A stretch of 64,000 nt of DNA from Patescibacteria group bacterium (GTDB lineage: Bacteria > Patescibacteriota > Patescibacteriia > 2-01-FULL-39-33): assembly GCA_041662745.1 (NCBI GenBank), contig JBAZRV010000001.1, positions 384 to 64,383 of the forward strand, given 5' to 3'. Each line of letters begins with the position of its first letter. The first letter of the stretch is position 1. A program made the position numbers and the translations under genes. Under the pieces are notes generated by a model. The model ran no database searches. It saw only the letters and a program-made list of their open reading frames with translations, and was not told the DNA's origin. This document shows, piece after piece, positions 8,276-50,355 of this stretch.

Positions 8276-9781
8276 TTAATAATCATCTCCGCCAGAATCT
8301 GGCGCACTCTCTTCAACAATAGCTTCTGCCGGTTCGTCCATCGCGTTTAAATCATTCTCCGCTTCTCTTTCGCCATAATCATGTTTGAAACGCTTATGGG
8401 ATAAAGCGGCCTTGGTTTCTTCCGTGTCTATTACCGCTACTCCCTCATCACTGTTATATCTCTCCAGCCGCTTAGTCAATTCAGTTTCAATCTTATTAAA
8501 ATCAACAATCTCTTGCACGCCGCCATTCATATCACGAAACATGATTGTGCCGTCACTGACTTCTTTCTGCCCCAAAATCAAACAATATTTAACTTTTAAT
8601 CTGCCGGCCTGCTCCAGTTGCGCCTTCAAACCGTCCTTATAAAAAGCTTGGGACAATTTGAATTTATGACGCAATGCCTCGTATAAAACAATGGCTTTTT
8701 TCTTAGCGCTTTCGCCTAACTGGGCGATAAACACGTCGGGCTGGTAAGGTTCAGCCACATCCGGATTTTTTTCCCGCAATTTTGCTATTACGCGATCCAT
8801 ACCGATAGACAAGCCGCAAGCCGGAGTATTCTCTCGTCCGCCCATTAATTCTATCAAACCGTCATAACGCCCGCCACCCCCCAAGGCATTTTTACCGTCC
8901 GGATCATCAACCGACCAATATTCAAAAATCGTTCGATTGTAATAATCCAAACCGCGTACAATCCAAGGATTGAGAACGTAGGGCAAATCAAGCTCGTCCA
9001 AATACTCCAAAACTTTCATGAAATGTTTTTTGCATTCGTCATCCAAATAATCTAAAATTTGAGGCACGCCAGCCCTAAGTTCTTGGCAACCGGGATCTTT
9101 GCAATCAAGCAACCGCAAGGGATTCTTGGTTAAACGCGCTTCGCAACTCTCACATAAATTCTTGGCGTGCTGACGATAGTATTTTACCAAAGCCTTTTTA
9201 TACTCTTCACGGCAAGCGGGACAGCCGATGGAATTAACTTGAATAGTCGCTTCTATGCCTAAATCATTAAGCAGATTATAGCCCATCAAAATCAGTTGGG
9301 AATCCAAAGCCGGACCATCTTCTCCGATTGCCTCATAACCGGCCTGATAAAACTGACGGAAACGTCCTGATTGCGGTTTCTCATGGCGAAACATCGGACC
9401 GTAATAAAAAAACTTTACCGGTTGAGGTTGATTCAATAAGCCATGTTGGATAAAAGCGCGCGCCACACTGGCCGTACCTTCTGGACGCAATACCAAATTG
9501 TCTCCGCCCTGATCAATAAAGGAAAACATTTCCTTTTCTACGATATCGGTCTGCTTGCCAATACCCCTGGCAAAAACGTCGGTGTACTCTAAAATCGGCG
9601 TTTCAATTTTGCCATAACCGTAATCGTTGGCGATTTTAGTGGCAACATTCTCCGCTAATTGCCAATATTTTTGATCCTGCGGCAAAACATCACGCATGCC
9701 GGTAACCGTGATAAATTCACGACCCCGTTTTTTTCTGGGTTTATCAACTGATTCTTTATCTGTTTTTTTAATTCTGGACAT
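8276..9781 (-). CDS. hisS: Histidyl-tRNA synthetase with internal Zn-ribbon insertion and acidic C-terminal tail
   Basis: Class II HisRS motifs (RGMRDVLP, LRPEGTASVARA, GGGGRYDGL). Insert CPACREEYKK…CESCEARL…CKDPGC. Acidic tail …DEPAEAIVEESAPDSGGDDY. Confidence 0.9.
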   Translation of the reverse strand: MSRIKKTDKESVDKPRKKRGREFITVTGMRDVLPQDQKYWQLAENVATKIANDYGYGKIETPILEYTDVFARGIGKQTDIVEKEMFSFIDQGGDNLVLRPEGTASVARAFIQHGLLNQPQPVKFFYYGPMFRHEKPQSGRFRQFYQAGYEAIGEDGPALDSQLILMGYNLLNDLGIEATIQVNSIGCPACREEYKKALVKYYRQHAKNLCESCEARLTKNPLRLLDCKDPGCQELRAGVPQILDYLDDECKKHFMKVLEYLDELDLPYVLNPWIVRGLDYYNRTIFEYWSVDDPDGKNALGGGGRYDGLIELMGGRENTPACGLSIGMDRVIAKLREKNPDVAEPYQPDVFIAQLGESAKKKAIVLYEALRHKFKLSQAFYKDGLKAQLEQAGRLKVKYCLILGQKEVSDGTIMFRDMNGGVQEIVDFNKIETELTKRLERYNSDEGVAVIDTEETKAALSHKRFKHDYGEREAENDLNAMDEPAEAIVEESAPDSGGDDY

Positions 9782-17575: not shown

Positions 17576-20494
17576 TCAAACCACAATACTGACCAACTTG
17601 CCTTTAATAAAAATAACTTTCTTGGGCTCGCCAGTCAAATATCTTTTAACGTTTGCATCATTAAGCGCCGCGGCCTTGGCTGTCTCCTCCGTTACATCCG
17701 TCGGTAAAACCAATTTTGCTCTAATTTTGCCATTAACCTGCACTGGAATTTCCTTTTCAGCATCAACGACTTTAGCCGGATCATACTCTGGCCATTTTTC
17801 TTTAAAAATACTAGTTTCGTGCCCGAGCTGATACCATAATTCTTCACACATATGTGGAGCAAAAGGAGATAAGATAATTAGAAACGATTTTTTGATAAAT
17901 TCTAAAGAAGCCTCATCTATTTTTTGTTTATCTACTTTTTTTTCTACTTCATTTTTCCCTGTATTCCAAAAATTTATCAAAATCATAAATTGAGAAATCG
18001 CGGTATTAAACTTCATTTCTTCTATATCTTCCCCAGCTTTCTTTATTATCCTATGCATTTCTCTAATCATCCAACCTTCATTAGGTGATATCTTATTCCA
18101 CCAATCTTTATCCTGATAAAATTCCCAAACCTTATTCAAAAACCGATGCACGCCCAAAATATTTTTTGTACTCCAGGGTTTCATATCTTCCAAGGGGCCC
18201 ATAAACATTTCATACATGCGGAAAGTGTCGGCGCCATATTCTTTCAGGATGTCATCGGGATTAACCACATTGCCGCGAGACTTAGACATCTTCTCTCCAT
18301 CCTCTCCCAAAATCAAACCCTGATTAACCAGCTTGGCAAACGGCTCCTCAAACGGCACTGCTTCAATATCAAATAGAACCATATTCCAGAACCGAGCATA
18401 AAGCAAATGCAAAACCGCATGCTCAGCACCGCCCAAATACAAATCAACCGGCAACCAATACTTCAATTTTTCTTGATCGGCGAAAGCTTTGTCATTGTGC
18501 GAATCAATATATCTTAACCAATACCAAGAAGAACCGGCCCATTGGGGCATAGTGTTGGTTTCGCGCTTAGCCGGACCGCCGCAGGTAGGGCAAGTCGTAT
18601 TAACCCACTCGTCAATGGTCGCGAGCGGCGACTCGCCCGTTCCGGTCGGTTCGTATTTTTCTACTTCCGGCAAAGTCAAAGGCAAGTCTTTTTCCTCAAG
18701 CGGCACAATACCGCATTTCTCGCAGTGAACTAACGGAATCGGCTCGCCCCAATAGCGTTGGCGCGAAAATACCCAGTCGCGCAATTTATAATTAATCGCT
18801 TTCTGTCCGCAGCCCTTCTCTTCCAGCCAATCAGTCATCTTACCAATTGCTTTGGCCGGCGCCAAACCATTTAAAAATTCAGAATTAACCATCAAGCCAT
18901 TATCAACATCGGTATAGGCGATATCGCCTTTTTTAATCCGCTCCAACCAAATATCCATTTCGGCATGAACCATAAAATCCAAAGTCAGCTCGTCCGGATT
19001 CTTCCATAAAATCTCATTCTGAGCTTCCTTTTCCTCGTCAGAAATATCCACCTGTTCCTCATCAATTAAATCAAACTCTACTAAGTTGGTATAAGAAACA
19101 CGATTAACATCTTTGTGATTAGCAAAATATTCGGCTCGCACCTGTCCGCCCAAAATCTTGCCATTAGCAAGATTCTTATAACCGGTTTCTTCCAGAACTT
19201 CCCGCTTGGCCGCTGCCAGTAAATCCTCATCTTGGCCAACACCGCCCATCGGAAAAGTAACCCAGTTATATTTGTGGGAATGCAAGCATAAGATTTTTCC
19301 GGTTTTAGGATTTCTAACCACTACTTGGACGTTATGCCTCTCAATTTTTTCCTTGCCAACGACCGGTGGGTTCCTTTTATCGATCCTCTCCGGAATAATC
19401 ACTTCAATAATGGGCAAATCAAACTTCTTGGCAAACTCGAAATCCCGCTCATCATGCGCCGGCACCGCCATAATCGCGCCCGTGCCATAGGTCGCCAAAA
19501 CATAATCGGAAATCCAGATAGGAATTTCAGTATTATTGACGGGATTAATCGCCTTAATGCCTTTTAATTCAACGCCGGTTTTGTCTTTATTCAATTCTGT
19601 CCTTTCCAAATCTGATTTATTTTTAGCAGTTACAATATAATCTTCAACTTCAGGAAAGTTACTGATTTTATCTTTCAATTCTTGAACCAATTTATGCTCC
19701 GGCGCCAAAACCATATAAGTCGCGCCGAATAAAGTGTCGGGGCGCGTAGTATAAACCCTGATTTTTTCATCACTATCGGCAATCTTAAAATCAACTTCCG
19801 CTCCCTCGCTTCGGCCGATCCAATTTCTCTGCAAAGTTTTGATTGATTCCGGCCAAGCCAGTTTTTCAACTCCCTCTAACAATCTATCGGCATAAGCGGT
19901 AATCTTTAACATCCATTGGCGCATATCGCGGCGCTCCACTGCCGTACCGCAACGATCGCATTTGCCGTCTTTGACTTCTTCATTAGCTAAACCGGTCTTG
20001 CAAGACGGACAGAAATTTATCGGTATGGTGGCTTCATAAGCCAAGCCCTTTTTAAATAATTGCAAAAAAATCCACTGCGTCCATTTGTAATATTTCGGGT
20101 CAGTCGTATCCACTTCCCTGTCCCAATCATAGGAGAATCCCAGTGATTGGATTTGGCGTTTGAAAGTAGCGATATTGGCCTCGGTCGTAATTCGCGGATG
20201 CGTGCCGGTTTTAATGGCATAATTTTCGGCCGGCAAACCAAAGGCGTCCCAACCCATGGGGTGTAAGACATTAAAACCCTTGAGACGCAAATAACGGGAA
20301 TAAATGTCAGTTGCCGTATAGCCTTCCGGATGACCGACATGGAGTCCGGCTCCTGACGGATAAGGGAACATATCCAAAACATACTTTTTAGGCTTGACAC
20401 TAAAATCTTCGGCCTGATCAATTTTGGTGTTCAACCACTTGTCTTGCCATTTTTTTTCTCCGCCCGAAATGATGAATTCTTTGTATGAAGCCAT
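17576..20494 (-). CDS. leuS: Leucyl-tRNA synthetase carrying a ~135-aa Nudix hydrolase insertion inside the CP1 editing domain
   Basis: HVGHPEGY (HIGH) and KMSKS present; editing motif [13 protein letters not shown]. After …FDLPII comes an extra segment with a canonical Nudix box [23 protein letters not shown] (residues ~385-480, coordinates ~19000-19340) before the normal …NSEFLNGL…[12 protein letters not shown]. Confidence 0.9.
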
Positions 20495-35344: not shown

Positions 35345-38300
35345 CTAAAGCTTTTCAATTTTTATCTTTACTTTTTCGCCGTTAATACTGACTGCCTTGG
35401 CATCGCTATCAGCCTCTATGATTTCCTGAGTTAGGGTGGATTTTTTCAATTCCTCATTAAGCAGAGCATCGCCAAAGACTTTTTTAACCGTTTCTCCTTC
35501 ACTCTGCCAGCTCAGTTTAATCCGGTCTTTAATGGTCAAGCCGGCATCCTTGCGCAAGGTATTAACAGTCCTGACAAATTCGCGCCAAGCGCCTTCAACT
35601 TTCAATTCATCAGTCAGATCGGTATCCAATTCCAATTTAATCTCCGTCCCGCCGGCAAACTCTAAATTCTTAAGATTCAGTTTGTCCTTAATCAAATTTA
35701 TGAGTTGCTGTTTATATGGTTCTTCGGCTAACGCCAAACCGAAAACCGTGGCCTTGTTAAGCGGTTGCCTGATTTTTATCTTAGCTTCGGCGCGGGCGGC
35801 TAAGCCCAACTCTTCTATGGCAGCGGCCAAACCCATCTGCTCTTTCAATTTGTCGCTGTAAGCGCTCGCCTCCTTGCTACCGTATAATTCCTTATCAATT
35901 TCCGGCCAACTCTCCAAATGGACCGATTCCTTCTCACCGCCGATCTGTTTGTAAACGTATTCGGCGACAAAGGGCGTAAAGGGTGCCATGATCTTGGATA
36001 ATTCCAGCAGGACGAGCCGGAAAGTGGCGATGGCTTGATTCTTGTCCGCTTCATCATCGCCCTTCAAGCGTTCGCGCGACGATTGCAGCCAACGAGTGGA
36101 GAACTCGTCTATGAATTCAGCCAAGGGGCGGGTGGCGCGGGGCAAATCATAAGCTTCCATGTTCTTGGTCACTTCCAAAAGCAACAGATTTAACTTTACC
36201 GACAGCCATTTATCCAAAATATTATCGCTTTTAACCGGCTCGGACGCCGCTGTCCCAGAAACTTCGTATAACTTATAAAAACTCAGAATATTATTCAACA
36301 GCATGGTAACCTTTTGCATTGCTTCTTTGACGGCGTCATCGGAAAAATTCAAATTTTCCGCAGTCATGACTGGCGCGGTCAAAAGATAAAAACGCAAGGC
36401 GTCGGCGCCGTATTTGTCCATGATTATTTCCGGTTCCGTGTAATTCTGCAAGCGCTTAGACATCTTCTTGCCGTCTTCAGCCAGAACAATGCCGTTGACA
36501 ATGACGTTTTTGAACGCTTCGCTGTCTCGTACGGCTGTAGCAATGATGTGGAGATAATAAAACCAAGCGCGCGTCTGATCCACGCCTTCGGCAATAAATT
36601 GCGCCGGAAAACCGGCCAGGAATTTCTCCTGATTCTCAAACGGATAATGCTGTTGGGCGTAAGGCATGGAACCGGAATCAAACCAAGTGTCCAGCACATC
36701 GGGAATTCTCGTCATTTTTTGGCCGCATTCTTGACAAACAATCTGCCATTGGTCCACGAAATGCTTATGCAAATCGGTTATCTTCTGTTTTATCTCCAGC
36801 ACTTGCCCTTTCTCCACCGCCAAATCCCTAAAGGTTTGGCTCGGTTCGTAGCCGTAAAGCCTGCCCAAAAACGACTTGATCGTGTCTTCGTGGCTGACCA
36901 ATAAAATATTCTTGCCTTCGTACTTTTCATTCAATTCTTGATACAGGGCCAGGGTCCGCTCCGTCACTTGCCGAACGCTTTCACCGGCCGGATAAGCATT
37001 ATCCCAATCGCTTTTCCATTTGGCGATAACCGCCTTGGCTTTATCGTCAACATCGGATTGTTCTTCCAGCTCGCCGGCATCAAGCTCGTTCAAGCGGGCG
37101 TCAAAAACCAGCTCTGCGCCCGTAACTTCGGCGATGAGCTGAGCCGTTTCCTTGGCGCGCAAGACTTCGGAAGAAACGATCAAATCAATTTTTTTATCTT
37201 TCAATCCGTCGGCGGCAACTTTAATTTGTTCTCGGCCGTTAGCTGTCAATGAGTAAACACCCAAACCGCTGCTGAACACGTGTTTAATATTCTTTTCCGC
37301 TTCGCCATGCCTGATGGCGAAAAAATTATTCCGATCTATTTTCAGCTCTTCCAGCTCAGCCACGCTGCCGATGACTTTTATTTCACCGCACTGGCACCGC
37401 CACAGCGGAATGACGCTGGCCCAAAATCGCTGACGGGAAATTGACCAGTCGCGCGCGCCCTCCAGCCATTTGCCGAAACGGCCTTCCTTAATATGCGCCG
37501 GCGACCAATTAATATTCTTGGCGGTTTCCAACGCCTTCGCTTTGATGTCTGTTACTTTGACAAACCAGGAACTGGTGGCGTAATTGATCAGCGGCGTATC
37601 GCACCGCCAGCAATGCGGGTAGCTATGTTCGTATTCGGCGCTGGCAAAAAGCAGTTTGTGTCTGTCCAGATATTCAATGACTTTTTTGTCGGTTGCCTTG
37701 GTATCTTCCGCCGGCTTGACATTCAGGCCGGCAAAATCAGCCACTTCATCCTTAAAATTCCCTGCCAAGGTCACATTCTGAATGAAAGCCAAATTTTCTT
37801 CTTGGCCCAATTGCATATCTTCTTCACCATAAGCCGGAGCGATATGCACTACGCCGGTGCCATCATCGGTGGTGACGAAATCAGCGGCTACGATAGTGTA
37901 TAAATTTTCTTTATTGGGCAAATCTTTGTCTAAATAATATGGGAATAACGGCTTATACTCTTTGCCAATCAATTCTGAACCCTTGAACTTGTCCAAAACC
38001 CGGACTTGCTGGCCGGCAAAAACTTTCTCCAAAAGCGCTTCAGCCAAAATCAATTTTTCACCGGGTCTGACCACTGACATCGTAGCAGTTATCTTATTCC
38101 CGCCTTCAACATCATAAGCTTCCATTTTCTTATTGGCGCCAGAACTGACGACAACATAGTCAATATCTTTTCCCACCGCAAGCGCCACATTGCCCGGCAG
38201 AGTCCAAGGCGTGGTCGTCCAAGCCAAAACATAAGCGCCCGGCTCATCAACCAACTCAAATTTAGCCGTCACCGACAAATCCTTAATATCCTTATAACCC

Positions 38301-38884
38301 TCACTAACCTCCTGCTGGCTCAGGGTTGTTTCGCATCTGGGACAGATATGCATGGACTTATAACCTTCATAAACCAAACCCTTGTCATACAATTCCTTAA
38401 ACACCCACCAAATTGATTCCATGTAAGACAAATCCATGGTCTTGTAAGAATCGTCCATATCCGCCCAGCGGCCGAAACGGGCGATGGTCTTTTTCCATTC
38501 CTCAACATAAACCAAAACCTTGCTGCGGCAGTATTCGTTGAATTTACCAATGCCGTAGTTTTCAATATCTTTCTTGCTCTTAAAGCCCAGTTCTTTCTCC
38601 ACGATGTTTTCAATGGGCAGGCCATGGCAATCCCAACCCCAGCGACGCTCCACATAACGGCCGCGCATCGTCCAAAATCGCGGCACCACGTCTTTCATCA
38701 GACTGGCGACCATATGGCCGTAATGCGGAGTACCGGTGGCAAACGGCGGGCCGTCATAAAAACTGTAAGCCTCGCCAGCCCTGGTCTGTTCCAGTGATTT
38801 CTCAAAAATTTTATTATCCGTCCAAAATTTTTGGATCTCTCGCTCTCTTTCCGGAATCGGATTAACCCACTTTTTTTCTTCCAT
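35345..38884 (-). CDS. ileS: Isoleucyl-tRNA synthetase with a ~180-aa histidine-phosphatase (PGAM-like) domain inserted between the Zn-knuckle Cys pairs
   Basis: Start at MEEKKWVNP. HYGH (HIGH) and KMSKR (KMSKS) present. Insert …FFAIRHGEAE…LTANG…IVSSEVLRAKETA…LVSHEDTIKSFL (RHG…H catalytic pattern) between WRCQCGE and CQECGQ, coordinates ~36790-37330. Confidence 0.9.
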   Translation of the reverse strand: MEEKKWVNPIPEREREIQKFWTDNKIFEKSLEQTRAGEAYSFYDGPPFATGTPHYGHMVASLMKDVVPRFWTMRGRYVERRWGWDCHGLPIENIVEKELGFKSKKDIENYGIGKFNEYCRSKVLVYVEEWKKTIARFGRWADMDDSYKTMDLSYMESIWWVFKELYDKGLVYEGYKSMHICPRCETTLSQQEVSEGYKDIKDLSVTAKFELVDEPGAYVLAWTTTPWTLPGNVALAVGKDIDYVVVSSGANKKMEAYDVEGGNKITATMSVVRPGEKLILAEALLEKVFAGQQVRVLDKFKGSELIGKEYKPLFPYYLDKDLPNKENLYTIVAADFVTTDDGTGVVHIAPAYGEEDMQLGQEENLAFIQNVTLAGNFKDEVADFAGLNVKPAEDTKATDKKVIEYLDRHKLLFASAEYEHSYPHCWRCDTPLINYATSSWFVKVTDIKAKALETAKNINWSPAHIKEGRFGKWLEGARDWSISRQRFWASVIPLWRCQCGEIKVIGSVAELEELKIDRNNFFAIRHGEAEKNIKHVFSSGLGVYSLTANGREQIKVAADGLKDKKIDLIVSSEVLRAKETAQLIAEVTGAELVFDARLNELDAGELEEQSDVDDKAKAVIAKWKSDWDNAYPAGESVRQVTERTLALYQELNEKYEGKNILLVSHEDTIKSFLGRLYGYEPSQTFRDLAVEKGQVLEIKQKITDLHKHFVDQWQIVCQECGQKMTRIPDVLDTWFDSGSMPYAQQHYPFENQEKFLAGFPAQFIAEGVDQTRAWFYYLHIIATAVRDSEAFKNVIVNGIVLAEDGKKMSKRLQNYTEPEIIMDKYGADALRFYLLTAPVMTAENLNFSDDAVKEAMQKVTMLLNNILSFYKLYEVSGTAASEPVKSDNILDKWLSVKLNLLLLEVTKNMEAYDLPRATRPLAEFIDEFSTRWLQSSRERLKGDDEADKNQAIATFRLVLLELSKIMAPFTPFVAEYVYKQIGGEKESVHLESWPEIDKELYGSKEASAYSDKLKEQMGLAAAIEELGLAARAEAKIKIRQPLNKATVFGLALAEEPYKQQLINLIKDKLNLKNLEFAGGTEIKLELDTDLTDELKVEGAWREFVRTVNTLRKDAGLTIKDRIKLSWQSEGETVKKVFGDALLNEELKKSTLTQEIIEADSDAKAVSINGEKVKIKIEKL

Positions 38885-39190
38885 ACTGTTATTTATGATT
38901 ACTGTTTGTTTAAAATAAAAAACACCAACTTGGCTGACCGGAGCCCTCGCGGGCGGTACCATCTCGGTGTTTGACTTGATTTCAGCTGTTACGGGCTGAC
39001 CGGCCGATTTTACTTTCCGTTACAAACGGGTTTCTTTCGGCAGCTCCAATGGTGATAACCACTGTCGGGCGCTGTTATTGATTGTTTAACTTGCTTATAC
39101 GATATTTTCAATATAACAAAAATCAAATAAAAAGTCAAAAATAAAAGTCGCCACTGCCGATGGCCTGGCGACTGAACTTACTCGGACTGA
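38885..39190 (-). promoter_or_regulatory. Putative T-box leader upstream of ileS
   Basis: Minus strand contains AGAUGGUACCGCCCGCGAGGG (cf. T-box GGGUGGUACCGCGG). A hairpin AACACC…GGUGUU + UUUUUUAUUUU lies just upstream of the start. Confidence 0.4.
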
Positions 39191-40353: not shown

Positions 40354-41031
40354 ATGAATTTGGGCAATAGCAAATACCAAAATCAATATCTGCATGCTGA
40401 CGCCGCAGTCTTTACGGTCGAAGACCGTAAGGTCAAGTTGCTTTTGGTGCGCCGTTCCCGCAAACCCTACATTGGACAGTGGTCGCTGCCGGGTGGAGGA
40501 ATTTACCGCACAGAATCAGCTAAACAGGCGATAAAAAGGGAATTGGCATACAAGACTGGATTGAAAAATCTCTATCTGGAAGAATTCGGCGTCTTTAGTG
40601 AGCCGAAACGCGATCCACGCGGCCGCATCATCTCAATCGCCTTTCTCGCCTTACTAGATAAGAACAAAGTGTCGCTATTGCAGAAAACACCCAAAACCAT
40701 GGGCGCGAAGTGGTTCGACATAAAAAAGTTGCCGCCTATAAAATGGGACCACAAAAAAATCACCAACTTGGCTATTGCAAAGCTGCGCAAGCGACTTTTG
40801 GAATCCAACATTGCTTGCCGGCTGTTGCCGAGATACTTCACGCTGCCAGAATTGCATAAGACTTATGAAATCATCCTTGGTAAACAACTCGATCGTCGCA
40901 ATTTCCGCAAGAAATTCCTCAAGCTGGGCTTGATTATCAAGACAGAAAACAAGGAACGCGGCAGTAGGAACCGTCCGGCCGCCTATTACAAGTTCAAGAC
41001 CGAACAGCATCAGGATATTTCCATCTTTTAA
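40354..41031 (+). CDS. Nudix hydrolase with C-terminal winged-helix-like extension (NrtR-like architecture)
   Basis: Nudix-like box GGGIYRTESAKQAIKRELAYKTGL plus a ~90-aa basic C-terminal tail. Confidence 0.6.
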   Translation: MNLGNSKYQNQYLHADAAVFTVEDRKVKLLLVRRSRKPYIGQWSLPGGGIYRTESAKQAIKRELAYKTGLKNLYLEEFGVFSEPKRDPRGRIISIAFLALLDKNKVSLLQKTPKTMGAKWFDIKKLPPIKWDHKKITNLAIAKLRKRLLESNIACRLLPRYFTLPELHKTYEIILGKQLDRRNFRKKFLKLGLIIKTENKERGSRNRPAAYYKFKTEQHQDISIF

Positions 41032-41120
41032 ACCTTCAACGCTTATTGAGACTATGACCCACGAGTGCATCATTTGGCAACTTAGTTTGAGTATATTTTA
41101 CACAAAAAATAATCATCATT

Positions 41121-42299
41121 ATGCCCAGTTTCCATCTCTGCAATAACAACGTCTGCACCCGGCTCTATCTTTTCGGCCAGGATTTAAAAAGCCTACTGTT
41201 GCAAAACTGCTGGCAGGAATTGCCTCTGAACCAAGCCGACCTTATTTTCGTCAATTCATGTTCTTTCCTAACAAAGACCGAAAATTTTTTTCTGGCTAAG
41301 ATTGAAAAATTAGACAAATCCAAAACCGCCAACCAGAAAATCATCGTCTTTGGCTGCTTGCCGCATACTTCTCTCGAAAAATTAAGAATGGTCTTCTCCG
41401 GCGAAATCATGCCGGCCAGGGACCTGGCGCAAGCAGCCGACCTGCTTGGTTTAAAATCAATAAACAGTAATATTGGCTATTCGATTCCGCGCCAATTGCG
41501 AACTTTAGATCGTTTCAATTATTTCATCAATAAATACCTGATTCGCAATGCCTATTTGGGCTATCTGTCCGGCGAACCGGCCTATTACCTCAATATCGCC
41601 CGAGGCTGCCTCGGCAAATGCACATATTGCTCAGAAAAAACAGCTCGCGGACCCCTTTCCAGTTGGCCGATTGCCGATATCGCCGCCTCTTTCCGAACCG
41701 GCTTGAAGCAAGGCTATAGGATATTCTCCCTTAATGCCGATGATGTCGGCGTTTTCGGCTGGGATCGGAAGGAAAACATCGCCGGATTGCTCAATGAACT
41801 GCTATCAGCTGACGGTGATTTTAAAATTATCCTGACAGAATTCAATCCCTGGGGTTTGATCAAGCATCAGCAAGAACTACTGTCGCTTCTGGCTTCAAAA
41901 AAAATAGCTCATATTACCATTCCCCTCCAATCCGGCTCGGATAAAATCCTCAAGCTGATGAGGCGACCTTATTCCATTCTGACAGTCATGGACATTATAA
42001 GACTTATTAGAAATAATAATCCAAACATCATCATCAATACCCATCTGATCGCCGGTTTTCCGGGAGAAACCGAAGAGGATTTCAGACTGACACTTGATCT
42101 CGTCAAGTCTGGCCTGTTTGACAAGGTCAAAGTCTTTCCCTATTCCGATCGACCGCAAGTGCCGAGCTACGACTTGCCGTATAAAATTCCGCCTCGAATA
42201 ATGGCTGAACGCTCCCGACGGCTGAGATATGAAACCTTCAGGCAGGCGCTACTGAAGCTAAACCTTAGAAATATATTGCTCAATCTGCAAAAAATTTAA
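41121..42299 (+). CDS. Radical-SAM methylthiotransferase-like enzyme (MiaB/RimO/MtaB family) lacking a C-terminal TRAM domain
   Basis: N-terminal MTTase-like domain (IFVNSCSF…), CxxxCxxC (GCLGKCTYCS), IAGFPGETEEDF box; 392 aa ends directly after the radical-SAM core. Confidence 0.7.
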   Translation: MPSFHLCNNNVCTRLYLFGQDLKSLLLQNCWQELPLNQADLIFVNSCSFLTKTENFFLAKIEKLDKSKTANQKIIVFGCLPHTSLEKLRMVFSGEIMPARDLAQAADLLGLKSINSNIGYSIPRQLRTLDRFNYFINKYLIRNAYLGYLSGEPAYYLNIARGCLGKCTYCSEKTARGPLSSWPIADIAASFRTGLKQGYRIFSLNADDVGVFGWDRKENIAGLLNELLSADGDFKIILTEFNPWGLIKHQQELLSLLASKKIAHITIPLQSGSDKILKLMRRPYSILTVMDIIRLIRNNNPNIIINTHLIAGFPGETEEDFRLTLDLVKSGLFDKVKVFPYSDRPQVPSYDLPYKIPPRIMAERSRRLRYETFRQALLKLNLRNILLNLQKI

Positions 42300-42302
42300 T
42301 TT

Positions 42303-42875
42303 ATGACCATTCTAATCTGTGGACAATCAGGCACAGGAAAAACGACGCTGGCCAAAATTATGGCAGATAAGCTTAATGCTGTCTGTATTTCGACTGACAG
42401 CATTAAGTTGTTTGCGCGTGCCAGCGGCTACGGCAATGCCTTTACCTATACCGACAGCCACGGCGCCTGGTCTAAGTTTGGTCGGAAGAATCGCCAGAAT
42501 ATCATCCGCGGCTTCAAAGCTCACAATCGCGTGCTCGAACAGCTCATTACAGACATCATCAAAGAAGCCGACGGTATTTCCCAACACTTAATCGTCGAAG
42601 GCGTTCAAATTACGCCTAAAATGTTAAAAGAGTTGCCAGGTGAAAAAATGGCTATCTATCTAGATTTACCGTGCAAAAAAACTCACTTCAAAATTTTCGA
42701 CTATAAGAATTCGAGACGCAAAATCGCCAACACTTTGTGGCGCGCCAATTACGATGCTATCCGACTGATTAATGACTATACTAAGGATGCCTACCGCCGA
42801 GCCGGATTCAGCATTATTAGGTCAGCTCCAGCCGAGCTTGTGGCCGATCGGTTGCTAACAAAAATCCGCATATGA
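42303..42875 (+). CDS. P-loop kinase (AAA_33 / 2-phosphoglycerate-kinase-like / polynucleotide-kinase-like)
   Basis: Walker A ICGQSGTGKTTLAK; 190 aa; starts 4 nt after the upstream gene. Confidence 0.6.
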   Translation: MTILICGQSGTGKTTLAKIMADKLNAVCISTDSIKLFARASGYGNAFTYTDSHGAWSKFGRKNRQNIIRGFKAHNRVLEQLITDIIKEADGISQHLIVEGVQITPKMLKELPGEKMAIYLDLPCKKTHFKIFDYKNSRRKIANTLWRANYDAIRLINDYTKDAYRRAGFSIIRSAPAELVADRLLTKIRI

Positions 42876-43735
42876 ACGACTACCGAGATTGCGATTATTT
42901 CATTGATGACTTGGGCGACATTCATATTGTGCGCGGCTACTTGCATCCAGTCAACTTAGTGCGGACCAAGCTGATATACAAAAAAACTTCCGCAGGCGAT
43001 CGCAGCCGCCGCAACGGAGATTGCTACGAAAAAAATCAGATCGACCAAATTATCTATCTCCCGGCCAGCCGTATAAAAGAGTATTTCCGGCCATTAAATA
43101 ATCCCATAAAGACGAGTTTGGAGGGTCTCTGGCTGGACATGTATAACGAGCTGAATAATTACGTCGCTGCAGACGACATTGGAATTTTCGGCTCCAGCCT
43201 ATTGGATTTTCCAGTCACCCGCGATGTCGACTTTATTATTTATGGCTTGGACAATTGCCGACGGATAAAAAGCAATATAGAAACGATCAAAATGGCGATG
43301 GCAGTGCCGGGAATCTCAACCAATCACATCAATTATCAATCGCAAAAATTTTCGGCATCGCATGAACCGGGCAATAACACCCTAGCCAAGACTTTAGCCA
43401 ACAAGTGGTGCACGGTGCAAATCGCGCCGGGAGTTTCCAACACGTTGATGTTCGGCTACAAGGCGGAAGAAATCGGCGACTGGCTAAATGCCGATGACCG
43501 GCCGGGGAAAGACATTGTTGTGGAGGGTGAGGTCCTAGATGATATCCGCACCAACTTCAGCCCGAGGATTTTCAACGTACGGGATCGCCGTGGTATAATT
43601 TTTACAGTAAAAACATATTATTGGGCTTATCATGCCTGTGTGCGCATCGGCGACATAGTTACGATTGCGGGCAGATTAGTCGACCGCAACATAATTCTAT
43701 TGAATAATTTCAATCACGGCATCGCAATTAGATAA
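42872..43735 (+). CDS. Minimal nucleotidyltransferase (Pol-beta superfamily) with C-terminal OB-fold-like domain
   Basis: GIFGSSLLDFPVTRDVDFIIYG (GS…DxD NTase motif); start overlaps the kinase stop (ATGA). Confidence 0.55.
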   Translation: MNDYRDCDYFIDDLGDIHIVRGYLHPVNLVRTKLIYKKTSAGDRSRRNGDCYEKNQIDQIIYLPASRIKEYFRPLNNPIKTSLEGLWLDMYNELNNYVAADDIGIFGSSLLDFPVTRDVDFIIYGLDNCRRIKSNIETIKMAMAVPGISTNHINYQSQKFSASHEPGNNTLAKTLANKWCTVQIAPGVSNTLMFGYKAEEIGDWLNADDRPGKDIVVEGEVLDDIRTNFSPRIFNVRDRRGIIFTVKTYYWAYHACVRIGDIVTIAGRLVDRNIILLNNFNHGIAIR

Positions 43736-43782
43736 CAAGCTTGGTTATATAATATCCGGTTTATTTCCAGCTTATTCCAAAA

Positions 43783-43887
43783 CCCTCCTCGTCCCGCCTG
43801 CCTGCCGGTAGGCAGGTCCGCCCTAACCATAAATCAACAAAAAAGACCTAAATTCATAGGTCTTTTTATGTTACTTCATTAAGTGAA
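43783..43887 (+). repeat. ~105-bp repeat element, copy A (GC-rich hairpin CCTGCC-N8-GGCAGG + terminator hairpin AGACCTAaattcaTAGGTCT-TTTTT)
   Basis: About 90% identical to 44683-44790; the embedded terminator is at 43842-43870. Confidence 0.7.
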
Positions 43888-44040
43888 GGATAATAGACGA
43901 TATTAGAACTTGTTTAGTCAAAATTGATAAAAATTATTTCGTCCCAAATTTAAGTTGACAAAAATAACTAGTTGCGATAACATATCGTCAATAAACAAAA
44001 AATGCACATTAAAATATAAACAACCAAAAAGGAGAAAGAA

Positions 44041-44610
44041 ATGCCATTGTTTAATATTGATCGCCCTAAGGCAGAAAGAATTAAATCAAGGTTGGTTGCC
44101 ATACTACCAACCAAGAAGCAGAAAAGAGAAATATTCCTAGCCACCGCCAGAAGAGTGGTCGGTCGAAAAGTAATCGAATGGAATTCTTGTTGTGGCACCT
44201 ACGGCCAGGGCGGGCCGGGATTCTTGGGTTTTAAGCTTGAAAAAAATTTCAGATACCACGAAGAATGGTTGATCTTAAGAATTTGGGGTGCGGATAATTG
44301 GTTGCTGGTCAACGGTCTATGGTTTGCGGCCGATCCCGATCAATATGATATTCAAGTCCCGCTTTATTCAAATTATTATGAAAAAGAATGGGATAATTTT
44401 TCCGAACTAATTATAAGCGAAAGAATAGAGACATTCGAGATTGCTGAAAAAACTATGACAATTACCATTGGATCTACTGTTATTTCGCTTGGCGATAATC
44501 CGGAAGAGCGGCCCAGATATGCCGGTAACGGCGATCAACGCAAACTCGATGAAGCTGATGACCTACGAGAGGCCTGGATACTTTCTCCTTATGCCTGGGT
44601 TGAAATATAA
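44041..44610 (+). CDS. Hypothetical protein (189 aa) bracketed by the two repeat copies
   Basis: SD AAAGGAGAAAG 7 nt upstream of ATG; no recognisable domain. Confidence 0.5.
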   Translation: MPLFNIDRPKAERIKSRLVAILPTKKQKREIFLATARRVVGRKVIEWNSCCGTYGQGGPGFLGFKLEKNFRYHEEWLILRIWGADNWLLVNGLWFAADPDQYDIQVPLYSNYYEKEWDNFSELIISERIETFEIAEKTMTITIGSTVISLGDNPEERPRYAGNGDQRKLDEADDLREAWILSPYAWVEI

Positions 44611-45493: not shown

Positions 45494-47200
45494 CTACATC
45501 CGCTCCAAAGTTTCTATGCCCAGCAAATCAAGACCGTTAGTCAGCACTTGCCGGACGCCGGCGATTAGGGCCAACCGAGCCGACCGCAACTTATCTTCGG
45601 AATTAAGTATGGGGACTTCCTGATAGTAGGAAGAAAAAATCTTAGCCAGATCAAATAGGTATTTGCCAAGCGTGCTGGGTTCAAATTCCTGAGCCGCTTC
45701 ATTTATCGCTTGAGGGAATTCTGCCAATTTGATCAGTAATTCTTTTTCTGCCGGATCAGCCAAAAGCGCATAATCCACGGTTTGAGAAATACTCTTATTC
45801 TTCCTTAAAATGCTATTAATGCGAGTTACGGTGTATTGCAGATACGGACCGGAATAACCGTCAAAAGACAGGGCCTCCTGAGGATTAAAAACAATTACGC
45901 TGTTCTTCCCCACTTTAAGCATGCTGAATTTTATGGCGGCCAAAGCGATCTTCTCGGCCGTAGAGGCGATCTCCGCCTTGCCCCAGTCGCTATGGCGCTT
46001 GGCCGTTTCCGCTTGCGCCAAAGCGGCCATCTCGGCCAGAAGATCCTCAAACAAAACAACATTGCCTTGGCGTGAAGCCATGGCTCCTTCGGGCAGGGTC
46101 ACAAACTCATAGGCGATATGCTTGGTTTTCTTATGGAAGCCCATTATCTCCAAGGTTTTAAAAAATTGCTGAAAATAAAAGCTCTGGCGGCTGTCTACCA
46201 CCACGTAAGAAGCATCTATCTTGTATTTATCAAATTTTAATTTAGCCAAAGCCAGCTCCTTGGTGGAATAAAGAGAGGTGCCGTCGGATTTAAGCAGTAA
46301 AAACTGCTTCAGACCGTATTGTTCCAGATCAATAATTATCGCGCCTTCTGATTTTTCAGCGACGCCTTGGGCCAACAGCTCGGCAACGATTTTCTTGCCC
46401 GGTTTCTCCACTTCGCTCTCAAAGAAAAATTTATCAAATTTTATGCCCAAAATTTTATAAATGCCGTCAAACTCCTGAAGCGACCAAGCGCGGGTTTTTT
46501 TCCATAAGGCCGTCCAGTACTTATCACCGGCCTCTAATTTTTTCTGCACTACTTGGGCTTCTTGCCGGTATTTTTCGCTGGCCTCGGTTTTTTGCACCGC
46601 TTCGCTGTAAATCCTGCCCAGATATTGCCCCTTGTGTTCTGCCGGCTCCGGATCTTTTTTGTGGAATTTATCCAAAGCCCAAAGGCACTTGGCCACATGG
46701 GAACCGATATCGCCGATATAATTAACGGCAATGACTTTTTGGCCGACAAACCGATACAGATTAACCAAAGCCGAACCTAAGACAGCATTGCGCAAATGGC
46801 CGACATGGAATTCCTTATGGGTATTCGGTTGGGAATATTCAATCATCACTTTCTCTTTCTTCCAAGGCAAACGTCCGTATTTATCCTCTTTTTTCTTAAC
46901 CTCGGAAATCACCGCCTTGGCCAGATGTTTCTCGTTCAGAAAAAAATTAAGATACGGCCCGAAATTGCTGACTGACTTCACTCCGGTCGGCAATTTTATT
47001 TTCTGTTTTATTTCCAATGCCACCTGATTGGGCGAGATGCGCAAAAGTTTGGTCAAATAAAAACAGGGTACGGCCAAATCGCCCATGGCCGCTTCCGGCG
47101 GACGGGTAATTTCCAATTGGCTGATATCAAGTTCCTGACCGACGGCTTTTTCCACGGCGGACAAAATTTCCTTTTGCAGCTTGTTTATGAAATATGGCAT
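45494..47200 (-). CDS. argS: Arginyl-tRNA synthetase
   Basis: HVGHLRNAVLG (HIGH); DALR anticodon-binding C-terminus. Confidence 0.9.
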   Translation of the reverse strand: MPYFINKLQKEILSAVEKAVGQELDISQLEITRPPEAAMGDLAVPCFYLTKLLRISPNQVALEIKQKIKLPTGVKSVSNFGPYLNFFLNEKHLAKAVISEVKKKEDKYGRLPWKKEKVMIEYSQPNTHKEFHVGHLRNAVLGSALVNLYRFVGQKVIAVNYIGDIGSHVAKCLWALDKFHKKDPEPAEHKGQYLGRIYSEAVQKTEASEKYRQEAQVVQKKLEAGDKYWTALWKKTRAWSLQEFDGIYKILGIKFDKFFFESEVEKPGKKIVAELLAQGVAEKSEGAIIIDLEQYGLKQFLLLKSDGTSLYSTKELALAKLKFDKYKIDASYVVVDSRQSFYFQQFFKTLEIMGFHKKTKHIAYEFVTLPEGAMASRQGNVVLFEDLLAEMAALAQAETAKRHSDWGKAEIASTAEKIALAAIKFSMLKVGKNSVIVFNPQEALSFDGYSGPYLQYTVTRINSILRKNKSISQTVDYALLADPAEKELLIKLAEFPQAINEAAQEFEPSTLGKYLFDLAKIFSSYYQEVPILNSEDKLRSARLALIAGVRQVLTNGLDLLGIETLERM

Positions 47201-48600: not shown

Positions 48601-50355
48601 ATGGCTACTCAAAACGACCAGTTAGACAAAATCCGCCATTCCACTTCCCATATCATGGCTTATGCCGTGCGGGAAATTTTCGGGGATAAAGTTAAATTTG
48701 CCATCGGCCCAACGATTGACGACGGCTTTTATTACGACTTTGACCTGGGGGACAAGACTTTTTCCGCCGAAGAACTCAAAGCGATTGAAAAAAAAATGAC
48801 GGAACTGATCAAGAAAAAATTACCTTTTGAAAAGATTGATTTGCCGATCAAGGAGGCGCTGGAAAAAATGTCCGATCAGCCCTATAAACGGGAATTGATC
48901 AATGATTTGGAAAAGGCGGGAGAAAAAACAGTCAGTTTTTACACTGTCGGCGATTTTACCGATTTGTGTCGCGGTCCGCACGTGGAAAATACCAAGGAGC
49001 TGGGCATTTTTAAACTAATGAAAACCGCCGGCGCCTATTGGCGGGGCGACGAGAAGAACAAAATGCTGCAAAGAATCTACGGCACAGCGTTTGAAACCAA
49101 AGAACAGTTGGCTGAATATTTAAAAATGTTGGAAGAAGCGGAAAAACGCGACCATCGCAAACTCGGTTCGGAGCTGAGTATTTTCATGTTTGATGACGAC
49201 GTGGGACCGGGACTGCCTTTATGGCTGCCTAACGGCGCCGTAATCATTGAGGAATTGGAGAAGTTGGCCAAAGACAGCGAATATGAAGCCGGTTATGTGC
49301 GCGTCAAAACGCCACACCTCTGCAAAGAATCCATGTACAAAACCAGCGGGCATTTGCCTTACTACACTGACAGCATGTTTCCGCCCATGGATGTAGACGG
49401 CGTGAAATACTACTTAAAGCCCATGAATTGCCCGCACCACCACAAGATTTTCGGCTCGTCCTTGCGCAGCTACCGCGATATGCCTATTCGCATCGCCGAA
49501 TATGGCACTTGCTACCGCTACGAGCAGAGCGGCGAGCTCTTCGGCCTGATGCGCGTCCGCTCCATGCAGATGAATGACGCTCATATCTACTGCTCGGTCG
49601 ATCAATTTGAGGAAGAATTCATTGCCGTCTGCAAAATGTATCTCAAATATTTTGAAATTTTCGGCATAGAAAAATACGTTATGCGTTTTTCCACTCATTC
49701 GGCCGAGGGTCTGGGCAAAAAATACGTTGATAATGCCAAGCTATGGCAAAAAACGGAAAAAATGGTGGAGACAGCCATGAAGAATAATGGCATCCCTTAC
49801 ATTAAAGTGGAAAACGAAGCGGCCTTCTACGGTCCCAAAATTGATGTGCAAGTCTGGAGCGCTATTGGCAAAGAATTTACTCTAGCCACCAATCAGGTGG
49901 ATTTTGCCGTACCGGAAAGGTTTGGCCTGACCTATATCAATGCCAAAGGCGAGCAAGAGACGCCTCTTTGCATCCACCGGGCGCCACTGGGCACGCATGA
50001 AAGATTTATCGGTTTCTTAATTGAGCATTATGCCGGCGCTTTCCCCACCTGGCTGTCGCCAGTGCAAGCTATAATCATCCCGGTTTCGGAAAAATTCACT
50101 GCTTACGGCAAAAAGGTTTATGACGAATTGTTTGCCGCCGGCGTACGCGTCAAGTTGGATGATGCCGACGAATCACTGGGCAAGAGAATCAGGAACGCCG
50201 AAAAACAAAAAACCCCCTACATCTTAGTGGTGGGAGAAAAAGAAGCCGCCGCTAAAACCGTGGCTGTGCGCAAACGCGGCGCCGGCGACCTGGGCGGCCA
50301 AAAGCTGACTGAATTCATTAAGCAAGTAAAAAAAGAAATAGCGGAGAAAAAATAA
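48601..50355 (+). CDS. thrS: Threonyl-tRNA synthetase (short form, no N-terminal TGS domain)
   Basis: HSTSHIMAYAV…; class II motifs; the Zn-binding C…H…H catalytic core is present. Confidence 0.9.
   Translation: MATQNDQLDKIRHSTSHIMAYAVREIFGDKVKFAIGPTIDDGFYYDFDLGDKTFSAEELKAIEKKMTELIKKKLPFEKIDLPIKEALEKMSDQPYKRELINDLEKAGEKTVSFYTVGDFTDLCRGPHVENTKELGIFKLMKTAGAYWRGDEKNKMLQRIYGTAFETKEQLAEYLKMLEEAEKRDHRKLGSELSIFMFDDDVGPGLPLWLPNGAVIIEELEKLAKDSEYEAGYVRVKTPHLCKESMYKTSGHLPYYTDSMFPPMDVDGVKYYLKPMNCPHHHKIFGSSLRSYRDMPIRIAEYGTCYRYEQSGELFGLMRVRSMQMNDAHIYCSVDQFEEEFIAVCKMYLKYFEIFGIEKYVMRFSTHSAEGLGKKYVDNAKLWQKTEKMVETAMKNNGIPYIKVENEAAFYGPKIDVQVWSAIGKEFTLATNQVDFAVPERFGLTYINAKGEQETPLCIHRAPLGTHERFIGFLIEHYAGAFPTWLSPVQAIIIPVSEKFTAYGKKVYDELFAAGVRVKLDDADESLGKRIRNAEKQKTPYILVVGEKEAAAKTVAVRKRGAGDLGGQKLTEFIKQVKKEIAEKK

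Follow-up and report, generated by a model that had tools for sequence, protein, structure and literature searches.

The window, by which we mean the whole 64,000-nucleotide stretch of Patescibacterial DNA analysed here, contains on its reverse strand an open reading frame at 35345..38962. Within it lies the coding sequence of a type-2 (eukaryote-like) isoleucyl-tRNA synthetase (IleRS) that carries an insert (ileS, 35345..38884, TIGR00392). The preliminary description had given this protein 1179 aa from MEEKKW, and that reading holds, with the ATG at 38884 and 1179 aa plus stop; it is likelier than an alternative of 1205 aa, since the longer version would begin within the terminator hairpin of the conserved leader. 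Judged by its sequence, the host of the insert is a genuine, housekeeping type-2 IleRS, because it passes the NCBIfam ileS equivalog TIGR00392 (858 bits against a cut-off of 621) and retains every IleRS motif: PHYGH (HIGH; aa 53-57, 38714-38728), the CP1 editing motifs WTTTPWTLPGN (aa 222-232, 38189-38221) and HIAPAYGEED (aa 347-356, 37817-37846), and KMSKR (KMSKS; aa 807-811, 36452-36466). Its top PDB matches are yeast IleRS (8wnd and 7d5c), IleRS2 of P. megaterium (8c8u) and the T. thermophilus enzyme (1ile), and P0001, from an NCBI Patescibacteria MAG, shows 100% identity to it.

Domains were mapped with the limits described for yeast IleRS (PMC7955072). Residues 1-494 (37403..38884, reverse strand, as are all ileS features) comprise the first Rossmann half, the CP core, the CP1 editing domain, CP2 and the CP2-3 linker. 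This linker, ARDWSISRQRFWAS (37415-37456, by equivalence with yeast IleRS), is the base of CP3 and forms the pocket for the CCA end of the tRNA (PMC7955072). The CP3 zinc knuckle that follows measures 44-46 aa in relatives without the insert and is here divided into an N-terminal half, WRCQCGEIKVIGSVAELEELKIDR (aa 495-518, 37331..37402), in which W495, C497 and C499 are invariant among 79 homologues, and a C-terminal half, QKITDLHKHFVDQWQIVCQECGQ (aa 700-722, 36719..36787), which aligns from yeast residue 496 on and in which D704, H706, D711, C717 and C720 are invariant. Residues 723-1179 and the stop codon (35345..36718) code for the second Rossmann half, with DTWFDSGS at 36668-36691, the anticodon-binding domain and a DUF5915 C-terminal domain (Pfam Anticodon_1 and DUF5915).

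Comparison among orthologues also defined a conserved 5' leader of ileS (38885..39138, reverse strand), in which we recognise a promoter of sigma-70-like type (39138-39110), a small hairpin that displays AUC-A and a block resembling a T-box, GAUGGUACCGCCCGCGAGGGCUCCGG; a long hairpin with a U7 terminator stands right before the start codon. The leader is kept in two insert-bearing orthologues and in one insert-less orthologue, and the UGGUACCGC block, the AUC-A hairpin and the terminator are shared by four orthologous leaders. A T-box is only suggested by these elements, since a search of the leader against Rfam, RF00230 included, gave no match at the gathering threshold nor at E<=1.

Between the two knuckle halves lies a His_Phos_1 domain (aa 519-699, 36788..37330, Pfam PF00300). 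The preliminary description had placed about 180 extra residues here, at 36787-37330, which is right as to the end and the content, with the start one base over; the insert is 181 aa long. In the alignment to yeast IleRS (7d5c/8wnd), residues 10-519 correspond to yeast 10-496 and residues 701-1074 to yeast 496-881, and this clean break in two identifies a true 181-aa insertion and not a divergent stretch. The proposed HMM search against PF00300 matched aa 523-695 (E=1.2e-37, 130 bits against a cut-off of 21.7) over profile positions 3-176 of 194, and the noted interval translated by itself matched with E=3.5e-39. All of the motifs that had been named are found: WRCQCGE (aa 495-501), RHGE (aa 525-528), LTANG, LRAKETA (with R576), VSHED (with H665) and CQECGQ (aa 717-722). 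A complete branch 1 histidine-phosphatase domain, with the alpha/beta fold of the superfamily, therefore sits at the tip of the CP3 zinc knuckle of IleRS.

The claim that the catalytic residues are intact was borne out as well. R525 (codon at 37310-37312) and the nucleophilic H526 (37307-37309) form the RHG motif, and they are joined by N532 (37289-37291), the second arginine R576 (37157-37159), the acidic proton donor E600 (37085-37087) and the second histidine H665 (36890-36892). Among 52 inserts, R525, H526, R576 and H665 are conserved in 100% and N532 and E600 in 98%; R643 (36956-36958) is also invariant. When the copies found in species genomes (51 inserted, 25 split) were compared, R525, H526 and H665 remained at 100%, while the second arginine was missing in one inserted copy. 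The asparagine following RHG is replaced by glutamine in 23 of the 25 split copies, which we count against the main explanation offered below. Outside the catalytic residues the domain diverges to 25-30% identity, at about twice the rate of the IleRS core. Since all catalytic residues of a phosphatase are conserved, the inserted domain is predicted to be, almost certainly, an active enzyme. The AlphaFold model is confident, and the topology suggests that the active site, at the C-terminal end of strand 1, faces away from the attachment to CP3. The window insert has a pI of 5.0 and a net charge of -8; pI ranges from 4.7 to 10.3 in the family, with no conserved basic surface.

The domain had been introduced as an active phosphatase or mutase. 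Its sequence is phosphatase-like, and the mutase half of that statement falls, since the insert scores below the cut-offs of all dPGM models: TIGR01258 (39 against 81.7, N-terminal part only), NF038349 (95 against 225) and GpmB NF002901 (71.5 against 261). In this 181-aa domain SHED/SHGD stands at the place where mutases typically have HGNS. Its structural neighbours likewise speak against a mutase; they are PspA (4ij5), PhoE (1h2e), GpgP (6s2q) and CobC (6nru/6e4b), as well as a riboflavin-pathway phosphatase, and its best PDB sequence match is CobC 6nru (E=4.5e-16). Assignment to any one of these was not sustained, with 99.4 bits against a cut-off of 162.9 for the CobC alpha-ribazole phosphatase model TIGR03162 and a score under the cut-off of the PspA equivalog. 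The phospho-histidine protein phosphatases of the SixA and MutT1-CTD type were rejected on equivalog score and on their minimal, cap-less fold. NF005567 (bifunctional RNase H/acid phosphatase) is the best NCBIfam match of the split protein P0177 and the third-best of the window insert.

The arrangement is not peculiar to this genome; it belongs to a widespread Patescibacterial family in which the inserted domain alternates with a separate gene translationally coupled to ileS. Of the 120 closest protein clusters (NCBI, JGI, ENA and Logan), 52 show the same architecture, and the window ileS is syntenic with insert-less orthologues. In the split form, the gene for a separate protein of about 200 aa overlaps the start codon of ileS, and the genes mostly follow one another as ArgRS, His_Phos, IleRS. 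Among 80 species-level loci, the two were fused in 50 and split but adjacent in 25, and the domain stood alone in 5, so that 75 lay within or beside ileS, and the spacing from the His_Phos stop to the ileS start was between -10 and +4 nt in all 25 split loci. Fusion with IleRS in some genomes and adjacency in others is the Rosetta-stone pattern; on this genomic arrangement, the His_Phos family is a dedicated IleRS partner across Patescibacteria, and the alternation of fused and overlapping genes points to an undescribed working partnership. The module occurs in at least 236 species-level genomes, a number obtained with 7 stand-alone sequences; it is a lower bound and biased to one sub-clade, because the pattern used, KN..SHG[DC], misses the window's own KNILLVSHED. 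A word-indexed search with the insert alone returned just 9 distant stand-alone proteins, and the family became visible through exhaustive profile search. The split form is also found in many Saccharibacteria and in Candidatus Microsyncoccus archaeolyticus PMX.50 (L085), an organism grown in co-culture.

Insertion has taken place at several sites, copy number runs from 1 to 4, and the same domain was independently inserted into ValRS. A related two-domain copy of the tandem type of about 415 aa (P0141) adjoins a TyrRS/TrpRS-type gene; these tandem proteins are not uniformly linked to synthetases, P0153 being found in an unrelated context. Fusion of TsaC to His_Phos is rare (4 clusters) and TsaC is joined to many unrelated partners in these bacteria, so the idea that adenylate-forming enzymes are the common denominator was given little weight. 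Presence of the module is patchy across the IleRS tree, and the close relative P0013, which has no insert, has no His_Phos gene near its ileS either; the function is therefore a conditional one. A neighbour-joining core tree required at least 15 state changes, with split forms nested among inserted ones. A history of one early gain with only losses after it was considered, but the neighbour-joining trees are too weak to choose between gain, loss and relocation. Among open-access papers and preprints we found no account of a histidine-phosphatase insert in IleRS or ValRS, nor of a Nudix insert in LeuRS. The phosphatase module explains why NCBI gives these proteins no more specific name than 'class I tRNA ligase family protein'.

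A second synthetase of the window is built in a comparable way. The LeuRS encoded at 17576..20494 (reverse strand) has a NUDIX domain inserted after its editing domain (aa 388-514, 18953-19333; Pfam NUDIX, E=6e-13), as had been noted, and its Nudix box (19178-19246) is intact and fits GX5EX7REUXEEXGU. Both domains are found together in the IleRS homologue P0057, which bears a Nudix and a histidine-phosphatase domain.

As to function, we suggest that the insert may be a tethered small-molecule phosphohydrolase acting on a product or by-product of aminoacylation, a candidate role to which we give somewhat less than an even chance. This reading is based on the full cap subdomain, the several insertion sites, the 1-4 copies and the existence of a separate-subunit form. 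His526 would attack the terminal phosphate of a phosphorylated aminoacylation product or by-product, with PPi, AMP or the nucleotides that Ap4A-type side products release as candidate substrates, and Glu600 would serve as acid/base in the subsequent hydrolysis of the phospho-histidine intermediate. Nudix inserts, like those of the window LeuRS and of the IleRS P0057, could supply the nucleotides released from Ap4A-type products. Removal of product beside the synthetase would drive the activation of the amino acid and the charging of tRNA, or would dispose of side products, when energy charge is poor. Several points weigh against this reading. Histidine phosphatases of branch 1 are known to act as phosphomonoesterases or mutases, and hydrolysis of PPi is known only from branch 2 (AppA and the phosphatase domain of PPIP5K). 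Destruction of AMP would be costly to a nucleotide auxotroph. Close relatives do without the module, which is patchy on the IleRS tree, and its active site probably points away from CP3. The preliminary description had offered proofreading or clearing of adenylate or nucleotide by-products, or moonlighting regulation; the clearing of by-products would be our preferred choice among these, whereas the adenylate itself is, on chemical grounds, an unlikely object of proofreading by a fold that attacks terminal phosphates.

A different view is that a housekeeping metabolic phosphatase (for phosphoserine, a sugar phosphate or a cofactor) rides on the essential and highly expressed ileS as a matter of genome economy, with no chemical link between the two. 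The nearest structures are indeed metabolic phosphatases (PspA, PhoE, GpgP, the riboflavin-pathway phosphatase and CobC), the active site is probably turned from CP3, several insertion sites are tolerated and Patescibacteria join many unrelated enzymes, the partners of TsaC among them. The failure to detect phosphoglycerate mutase in some Parcubacteria clades (PMC7304191) also counts in its favour. However, all dPGM, PspA and CobC equivalog cut-offs were failed, and a chance hitchhiker should not follow class I synthetases as faithfully as this domain does, with its specific and recurrent place in or beside ileS, the start/stop overlap of every split locus, an independent insertion into ValRS and a two-domain copy beside a TyrRS/TrpRS-type gene. 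We consider this view unlikely, if the strongest of the rivals. The anchoring of CP3 to the linker that forms the CCA pocket would fit the healing of tRNA ends, in which a 3'-phosphate (or 2'-phosphate) is taken off damaged acceptor ends, perhaps once a cyclic phosphodiesterase has acted, before re-extension and charging. All partners handle tRNA (IleRS, ValRS and TsaC, with ArgRS and TyrRS/TrpRS-type neighbours), fusions of TsaC with Nudix domains and with 2H cyclic phosphodiesterases occur in the same phylum, and the similarity to NF005567 is to a phosphatase clade joined earlier to a nucleic-acid enzyme. Yet the capped site resembles that of small-molecule enzymes rather than the open one of SixA, Sts or PGAM5, the specificity for IleRS has no obvious reason and a basic surface is not conserved, with a pI too variable for a firm test of tRNA binding. 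We also know of no RNA 3'-phosphatase in the histidine phosphatase superfamily, and end-healing seems quite unlikely.

HipA/HipT kinases are known to act on the class I synthetases GltX and TrpS, which speaks for a regulatory protein phosphatase that dephosphorylates IleRS or a partner, for example to undo a phospho-histidine signal or the inactivation caused by a kinase of the HipA type. The presence of a response-regulator gene between ArgRS and IleRS in close relatives agrees with this, and the superfamily does include protein phosphatases, namely SixA, Sts-1, PGAM5 and the C-terminal domain of mycobacterial MutT1 (PMC12407098); such a role is nonetheless improbable. Degenerate hydrolase folds do occur in synthetases, and the HD domain of the bacterial GlyRS beta subunit, which has lost its catalytic residues, would be the precedent for a fold kept only as a structural or tRNA-binding appendage (PMC8464048). 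GlyRS, however, lost its catalytic doublet, whereas R525, H526 and H665 are kept here, and N532 and E600 in 98%, while the rest diverges, so that a non-catalytic module is very improbable. Last, the contig might have been chimeric or misannotated at the insert; nothing beyond its metagenome-assembled origin speaks for this, whereas the insert is in frame on both sides, recurs in independent assemblies (the 52 of 120 clusters, 50 species-level genomes), shows no GC break and gives a confident AlphaFold model, and the chance of an artefact is negligible.

Returning to the tethered small-molecule phosphohydrolase, its most extended version would have the phosphatase serve the class Ia synthetases of Patescibacteria (IleRS and ValRS) as a functional subunit or domain of a kind not yet described, one that couples charging to the destruction of PPi/AMP or side products and renders aminoacylation effectively irreversible at low energy charge, with the Nudix inserts of LeuRS and IleRS as the other half of by-product clearing; taken whole, this version is doubtful. 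Aminoacyl-tRNA synthetases belong to the most thoroughly studied enzymes, and the accessory active sites known in them hydrolyse aminoacyl esters. Not described in the open-access papers and preprints searched is a conserved and apparently active phosphatase within the catalytic body of IleRS and ValRS or as an IleRS-coupled subunit. It implies a step of tRNA charging or by-product handling that is kept by minimal-genome episymbionts despite the loss of most of their metabolism and, together with the Nudix inserts, it singles out the CP regions of class Ia synthetases as a platform on which nucleotide-phosphate hydrolases dock.

Set beside ordinary type-2 IleRS (7d5c, 8c8u and 1ile), the window protein has the same domains and motifs, including HIGH, KMSKS, CP1 editing and the CP3 knuckle, but adds 181 residues with an active site of their own at the CP3 tip. 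The insert shares the full cap subdomain of the small-molecule phosphatases PspA, PhoE, GpgP and CobC, unlike the open-type SixA, Sts and PGAM5; its identity to those four is 21-27%, under every NCBIfam equivalog cut-off, and they are free-standing enzymes, whereas the window family is inserted in IleRS or translationally coupled to it. That class I/II synthetases accept extra hydrolase or transferase folds, inserted or appended, in connective-peptide regions is seen in IleRS with a GNAT domain (NF040702), in the HD domain of GlyRS beta and in CP1 editing, although CP1 editing domains hydrolyse aminoacyl esters and not phosphates. In the NF005567 or Rv2228c type, a nucleic-acid enzyme is likewise linked with a CobC-like phosphatase of this clade, but that fusion is end-to-end while the insert is internal, and the scores are 94-97 against a cut-off of 326. 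Mycobacterial MutT1 (9cxx and 3fjy), with a Nudix part that acts on nucleotides and diadenosine polyphosphates and a C-terminal RHG domain, combines the same two folds that are put into class Ia synthetases here.

The ileS gene lies on the minus strand, within one long open reading frame (35345..38962). The likelier start is the ATG at 38884 (IleRS, 35345-38884), since the 26 codons before it run into the terminator hairpin of a conserved leader, and the protein counted from this MEEKKW start has 1179 residues. It passes the NCBIfam ileS equivalog model (858 bits against a cut-off of 621), has HIGH as PHYGH (aa 53-57) and KMSKS as KMSKR (aa 807-811), and keeps the CP1 editing motifs; the PDB entries that match it best are those of yeast IleRS, P. 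megaterium IleRS2 and T. thermophilus IleRS. The host protein is thus predicted to be a bona fide IleRS of the eukaryote-like type 2.

Pfam splits its class I catalytic domain into two stretches with His_Phos_1 (PF00300) between them at aa 523-695 (E=1.2e-37, 130 bits against a curated cut-off of 21.7). The match is far beyond chance, and the histidine-phosphatase domain that a preliminary description had read in this IleRS is indeed there, together with each sequence motif it listed. The interval proposed for it, 36787-37330, scores E=3.5e-39 when translated alone; its end was exact, but the codon span begins at 36788 (36788..37330, minus strand). In alignments to solved IleRS structures, residues 10-519 correspond to yeast 10-496 and residues 701-1074 to yeast 496-881, a clean break which argues that 181 residues were inserted at a single point. 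Yeast CP3 spans residues 459-526, and its CP2-3 linker (453-465) is part of the reveromycin A pocket, where the drug takes the place of the tRNA CCA end (PMC7955072). Because the equivalent residue 496 falls within CP3, the insertion point is in the middle of that region. CP3 in the window IleRS is a zinc knuckle, W-x-C-x-C...C-x-x-C, with a length of 44-46 residues in insert-less relatives (...ELEKDSGEKITDLHKH...) against 227-251 in insert-bearing ones. An AlphaFold model of the full-length protein (mean pLDDT 88.6, pTM 0.81) is confident in the insert region (about 90-97).

The catalytic residues had been described as intact, and R525, H526, R576 and H665, as well as G604 and R643, are invariant across 52 insert-bearing homologues, with N532 and E600 98% conserved. 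The insert diverges about 2x faster than the IleRS core (mean pairwise difference 0.66 vs 0.38), homologous inserts dropping to 25-30% identity with that of the window. Conservation of the catalytic set in such a rapidly diverging domain therefore reflects specific purifying selection on that set. Profile, catalytic residues and fold all place the insert in the histidine phosphatase superfamily, as a predicted phosphatase of the short, capped, small-molecule type, and its closest solved relative by sequence is CobC (E=4.5e-16). The insert did not reach the curated threshold of any specific NCBIfam model (CobC, archaeal and bacterial dPGM, GpmB, PspA, SixA, RNase H/acid phosphatase), and membership in the dPGM, CobC, PspA or SixA families was rejected on these cut-offs. 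Judged by these scores, the insert is predicted to be no mutase and to lie outside every characterised subfamily. From the "phosphatase or mutase" first suggested, the phosphatase type is retained on superfamily profile and fold, while the mutase is discarded on the dPGM and GpmB cut-offs.

An identical protein is present in NCBI on a 249-kb contig of a Patescibacteria MAG, named only "class I tRNA ligase family protein", and the insert architecture is common to 52 of the 120 closest protein clusters (NCBI, JGI, ENA, Logan). When 1.84 billion representative proteins were searched exhaustively with a profile, 1253 matched at E<1e-30, and architectures were read from the best 150. The majority are IleRS with a single CP3 insert, accompanied by IleRS with two tandem inserts (proteins P0133, P0136, P0138, P0140), IleRS carrying inserts at two separate places (P0131 and others; the second of these is past KMSKS, immediately before the anticodon-binding domain), stand-alone proteins of ~190 aa, tandem proteins of ~415 aa and a TsaC (Sua5/YrdC)-His_Phos fusion (P0243). 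Multi-insert IleRS of either kind are found among P0131, P0133-P0138 and P0140. The ValRS P0156, P0164, P0130 and P0165 hold 2-4 His_Phos copies each, and every ValRS examined has one at the homologous CP3 position, after RIPVWY. One IleRS homologue of 1305 aa (P0057) combines a NUDIX domain in the CP1 region (aa 323-454) with the His_Phos insert (aa 656-817). The Nudix domain already reported in the window LeuRS (17576-20494, minus strand) was recovered by Pfam as an insert after the editing domain (18953-19333, aa 388-514) with a perfect, intact Nudix box; it is probably a separate finding that belongs to this wider pattern of class Ia synthetases with inserted phosphohydrolases. Patescibacterial TsaC, a threonylcarbamoyl-AMP synthase, has many fusion partners (P0243, P0280-P0282 and other matches), most commonly an Ogt-like PF01035 domain, but also TruB, 2H cyclic phosphodiesterase (PF13563/PF07823), Nudix, GNAT and methylpurine glycosylase domains and, rarely, His_Phos_1. 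At two loci (L089, 2081-4890; L090, 2009-4818) a two-domain His_Phos protein (P0141) and a further His_Phos fragment immediately precede a gene for a synthetase of class Ic (tRNA-synt_1b, TyrRS/TrpRS type), and the phosphatase/synthetase neighbourhood may extend past IleRS and ValRS.

The stand-alone proteins nearest to the insert were placed on their contigs to read their neighbours. The gene for P0177 (42% identity with the insert) precedes a same-strand IleRS gene by 118 bp, that for P0161 is flanked by ArgRS and an insert-less IleRS, and that for P0208 comes after ArgRS. GTDB species, each represented by a single genome, were scanned with a pattern made from seven stand-alone sequences, and at least 236 loci were confirmed; the best 80 went on to classification by local BLAST of stop-to-stop ORFs. 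By record title they are mostly Patescibacteria (Saccharibacteria, Paceibacterota, Minisyncoccales, Ca. Microsyncoccus archaeolyticus, and Doudna-, Colwell-, Lipton-, Azam-, Yanofsky-, Nealson- and Vogelbacteria), with a few bins under other or no taxonomic labels. Among these best 80 of 236, the phosphatase is within IleRS at 50 loci. At 25 it has its own gene (about 190-220 aa), which directly precedes that of an insert-less IleRS and runs in the same direction, and at 5 it is alone, two of these being at the end of a contig. Every one of the 25 split loci has the phosphatase stop codon -10 to +4 nt from the ileS start (median -4, ATGA-type overlap), a spacing that usually signals translational coupling of subunits; the gene immediately before the phosphatase is usually ArgRS, and one locus (L043) has two phosphatase genes in tandem ahead of ileS. 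In a neighbour-joining tree inserted and split copies form a single clade apart from generic stand-alone histidine phosphatases, the split copies mostly as one sub-clade nested among inserted ones, which is weak evidence on direction. Being fused in some genomes and encoded by adjacent overlapping genes in others, the two are therefore a Rosetta-stone pair, and gene arrangement identifies the putative phosphatase as a dedicated partner of IleRS. Split copies (n=25) retain the core catalytic Arg and both His without exception, their proton donor is Asp more commonly than Glu, and Gln replaces the Asn after RHG in 23 of 25 (loci within L017-L085, e.g. L025, 5986-6555); inserted copies mostly retain Asn and Glu. 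These substitutions may represent an altered substrate preference or mere lineage drift.

The order ThrRS (48601-50355), ArgRS (45494-47200), IleRS, UvrA (21912-24794) is also that around an insert-less orthologue, P0013. Locally, ArgRS is followed by a response regulator, a ferredoxin and IleRS both there and in P0002 and P0003, the nearest relatives with an insert; the window gene is the housekeeping ileS. No phosphatase gene was found in the neighbourhood of the P0013 ileS, and insert presence needs at least 15 state changes on a neighbour-joining tree of the IleRS core. The module therefore has a history of repeated gain, loss or relocation, and is no universal requirement. Five synthetase genes lie within 42 kb of the window: HisRS (8276-9781), LeuRS, IleRS, ArgRS and ThrRS. 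A plus-strand block (40354-44610) breaks the ArgRS...IleRS arrangement conserved in relatives and includes an NrtR-like regulator (NUDIX plus NrtR winged-helix, 40354-41031), whose gene and ileS are 1.4 kb apart on opposite strands. The protein encoded at 3867-7184 (1105 aa) contains a type IV secretion pilin domain, and no tRNA genes or Rfam families were found across the whole 64 kb. The ileS leader (38885-39138, minus strand), conserved in P0002, P0003 and P0013, resembles a divergent T-box: AUC-A (Ile codon plus purine) is displayed on a small hairpin, the UGGU of an invariant block, CCGAGAUGGUACCGCCCGCGAGGGCUCCGG, could pair with tRNA 3'-ACCA, and a long hairpin with a U7 terminator follows 3' of the block, ending ~20 nt ahead of the start codon. 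An Rfam search of this leader gave no match even at E<=1.

The insertion sites vary (CP3 tip, before CP3, after KMSKS), copies number from 1 to 4 and a separate-subunit form exists; tethering or complex formation would therefore outweigh fixed geometry, which fits the capture of a diffusible small molecule made at the synthetase. The chemistry of the superfamily requires a terminal phosphate, so the aminoacyl-adenylate itself is excluded as substrate, and the fold allows PPi, AMP, other NMPs, pAp and nucleotides from Ap4A-type side products. Ap4A in cells comes mainly from synthetases, and its classic hydrolases are Nudix enzymes; the presence of Nudix and His_Phos inserts in this lineage's class Ia synthetases, including both in one IleRS, points to by-product clearing. 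We tentatively regard as the best explanation a tethered phosphohydrolase that would remove a phosphorylated product or by-product of aminoacylation, with a substrate and benefit that we infer; such removal would draw the reaction forward or clear side products.

An ordinary housekeeping phosphatase riding on ileS is somewhat unlikely, its association with class I synthetases being specific and repeated. Retention of the cap and absence of a conserved basic surface count against both the healing of tRNA 3'-phosphate ends, which is unlikely, and a regulatory protein phosphatase, which is quite improbable. That the insert is a non-catalytic module is very improbable. An assembly artefact has hardly any probability: a chimeric contig, raised initially as a reason for doubt, is not borne out by the GC content of the insert (0.485 vs 0.471 in the remainder of the gene) or by the same architecture in NCBI, JGI, ENA and Logan. 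The preliminary observation is real and its reading right, and the phenomenon is larger than it stated: comparison with sibling IleRS upheld the architecture and extends it to a phylum-wide His_Phos/IleRS partnership, not a one-off in the window genome.

Full-text searches of open-access papers and preprints brought up neither a phosphatase, whether active or not, that is inserted in IleRS or ValRS or coupled to them, nor the Nudix insert of LeuRS. The CP1 editing domains of synthetases hydrolyse aminoacyl esters. Among synthetases with appended domains, a GNAT-bearing IleRS is known to NCBIfam (NF040702), and the bacterial GlyRS beta subunit carries an HD domain from which the catalytic doublet has been lost (PMC8464048). 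Mycobacterial MutT1 is an example of both folds working in one protein, and its Nudix part acts on diadenosine polyphosphates; however, its histidine-phosphatase part is a SixA-like protein phosphatase (PMC11784022, PMC12407098). The system described here is classed as a synthetase with an accessory, putatively catalytic domain or subunit, the chemistry of which would be new among such appendages.
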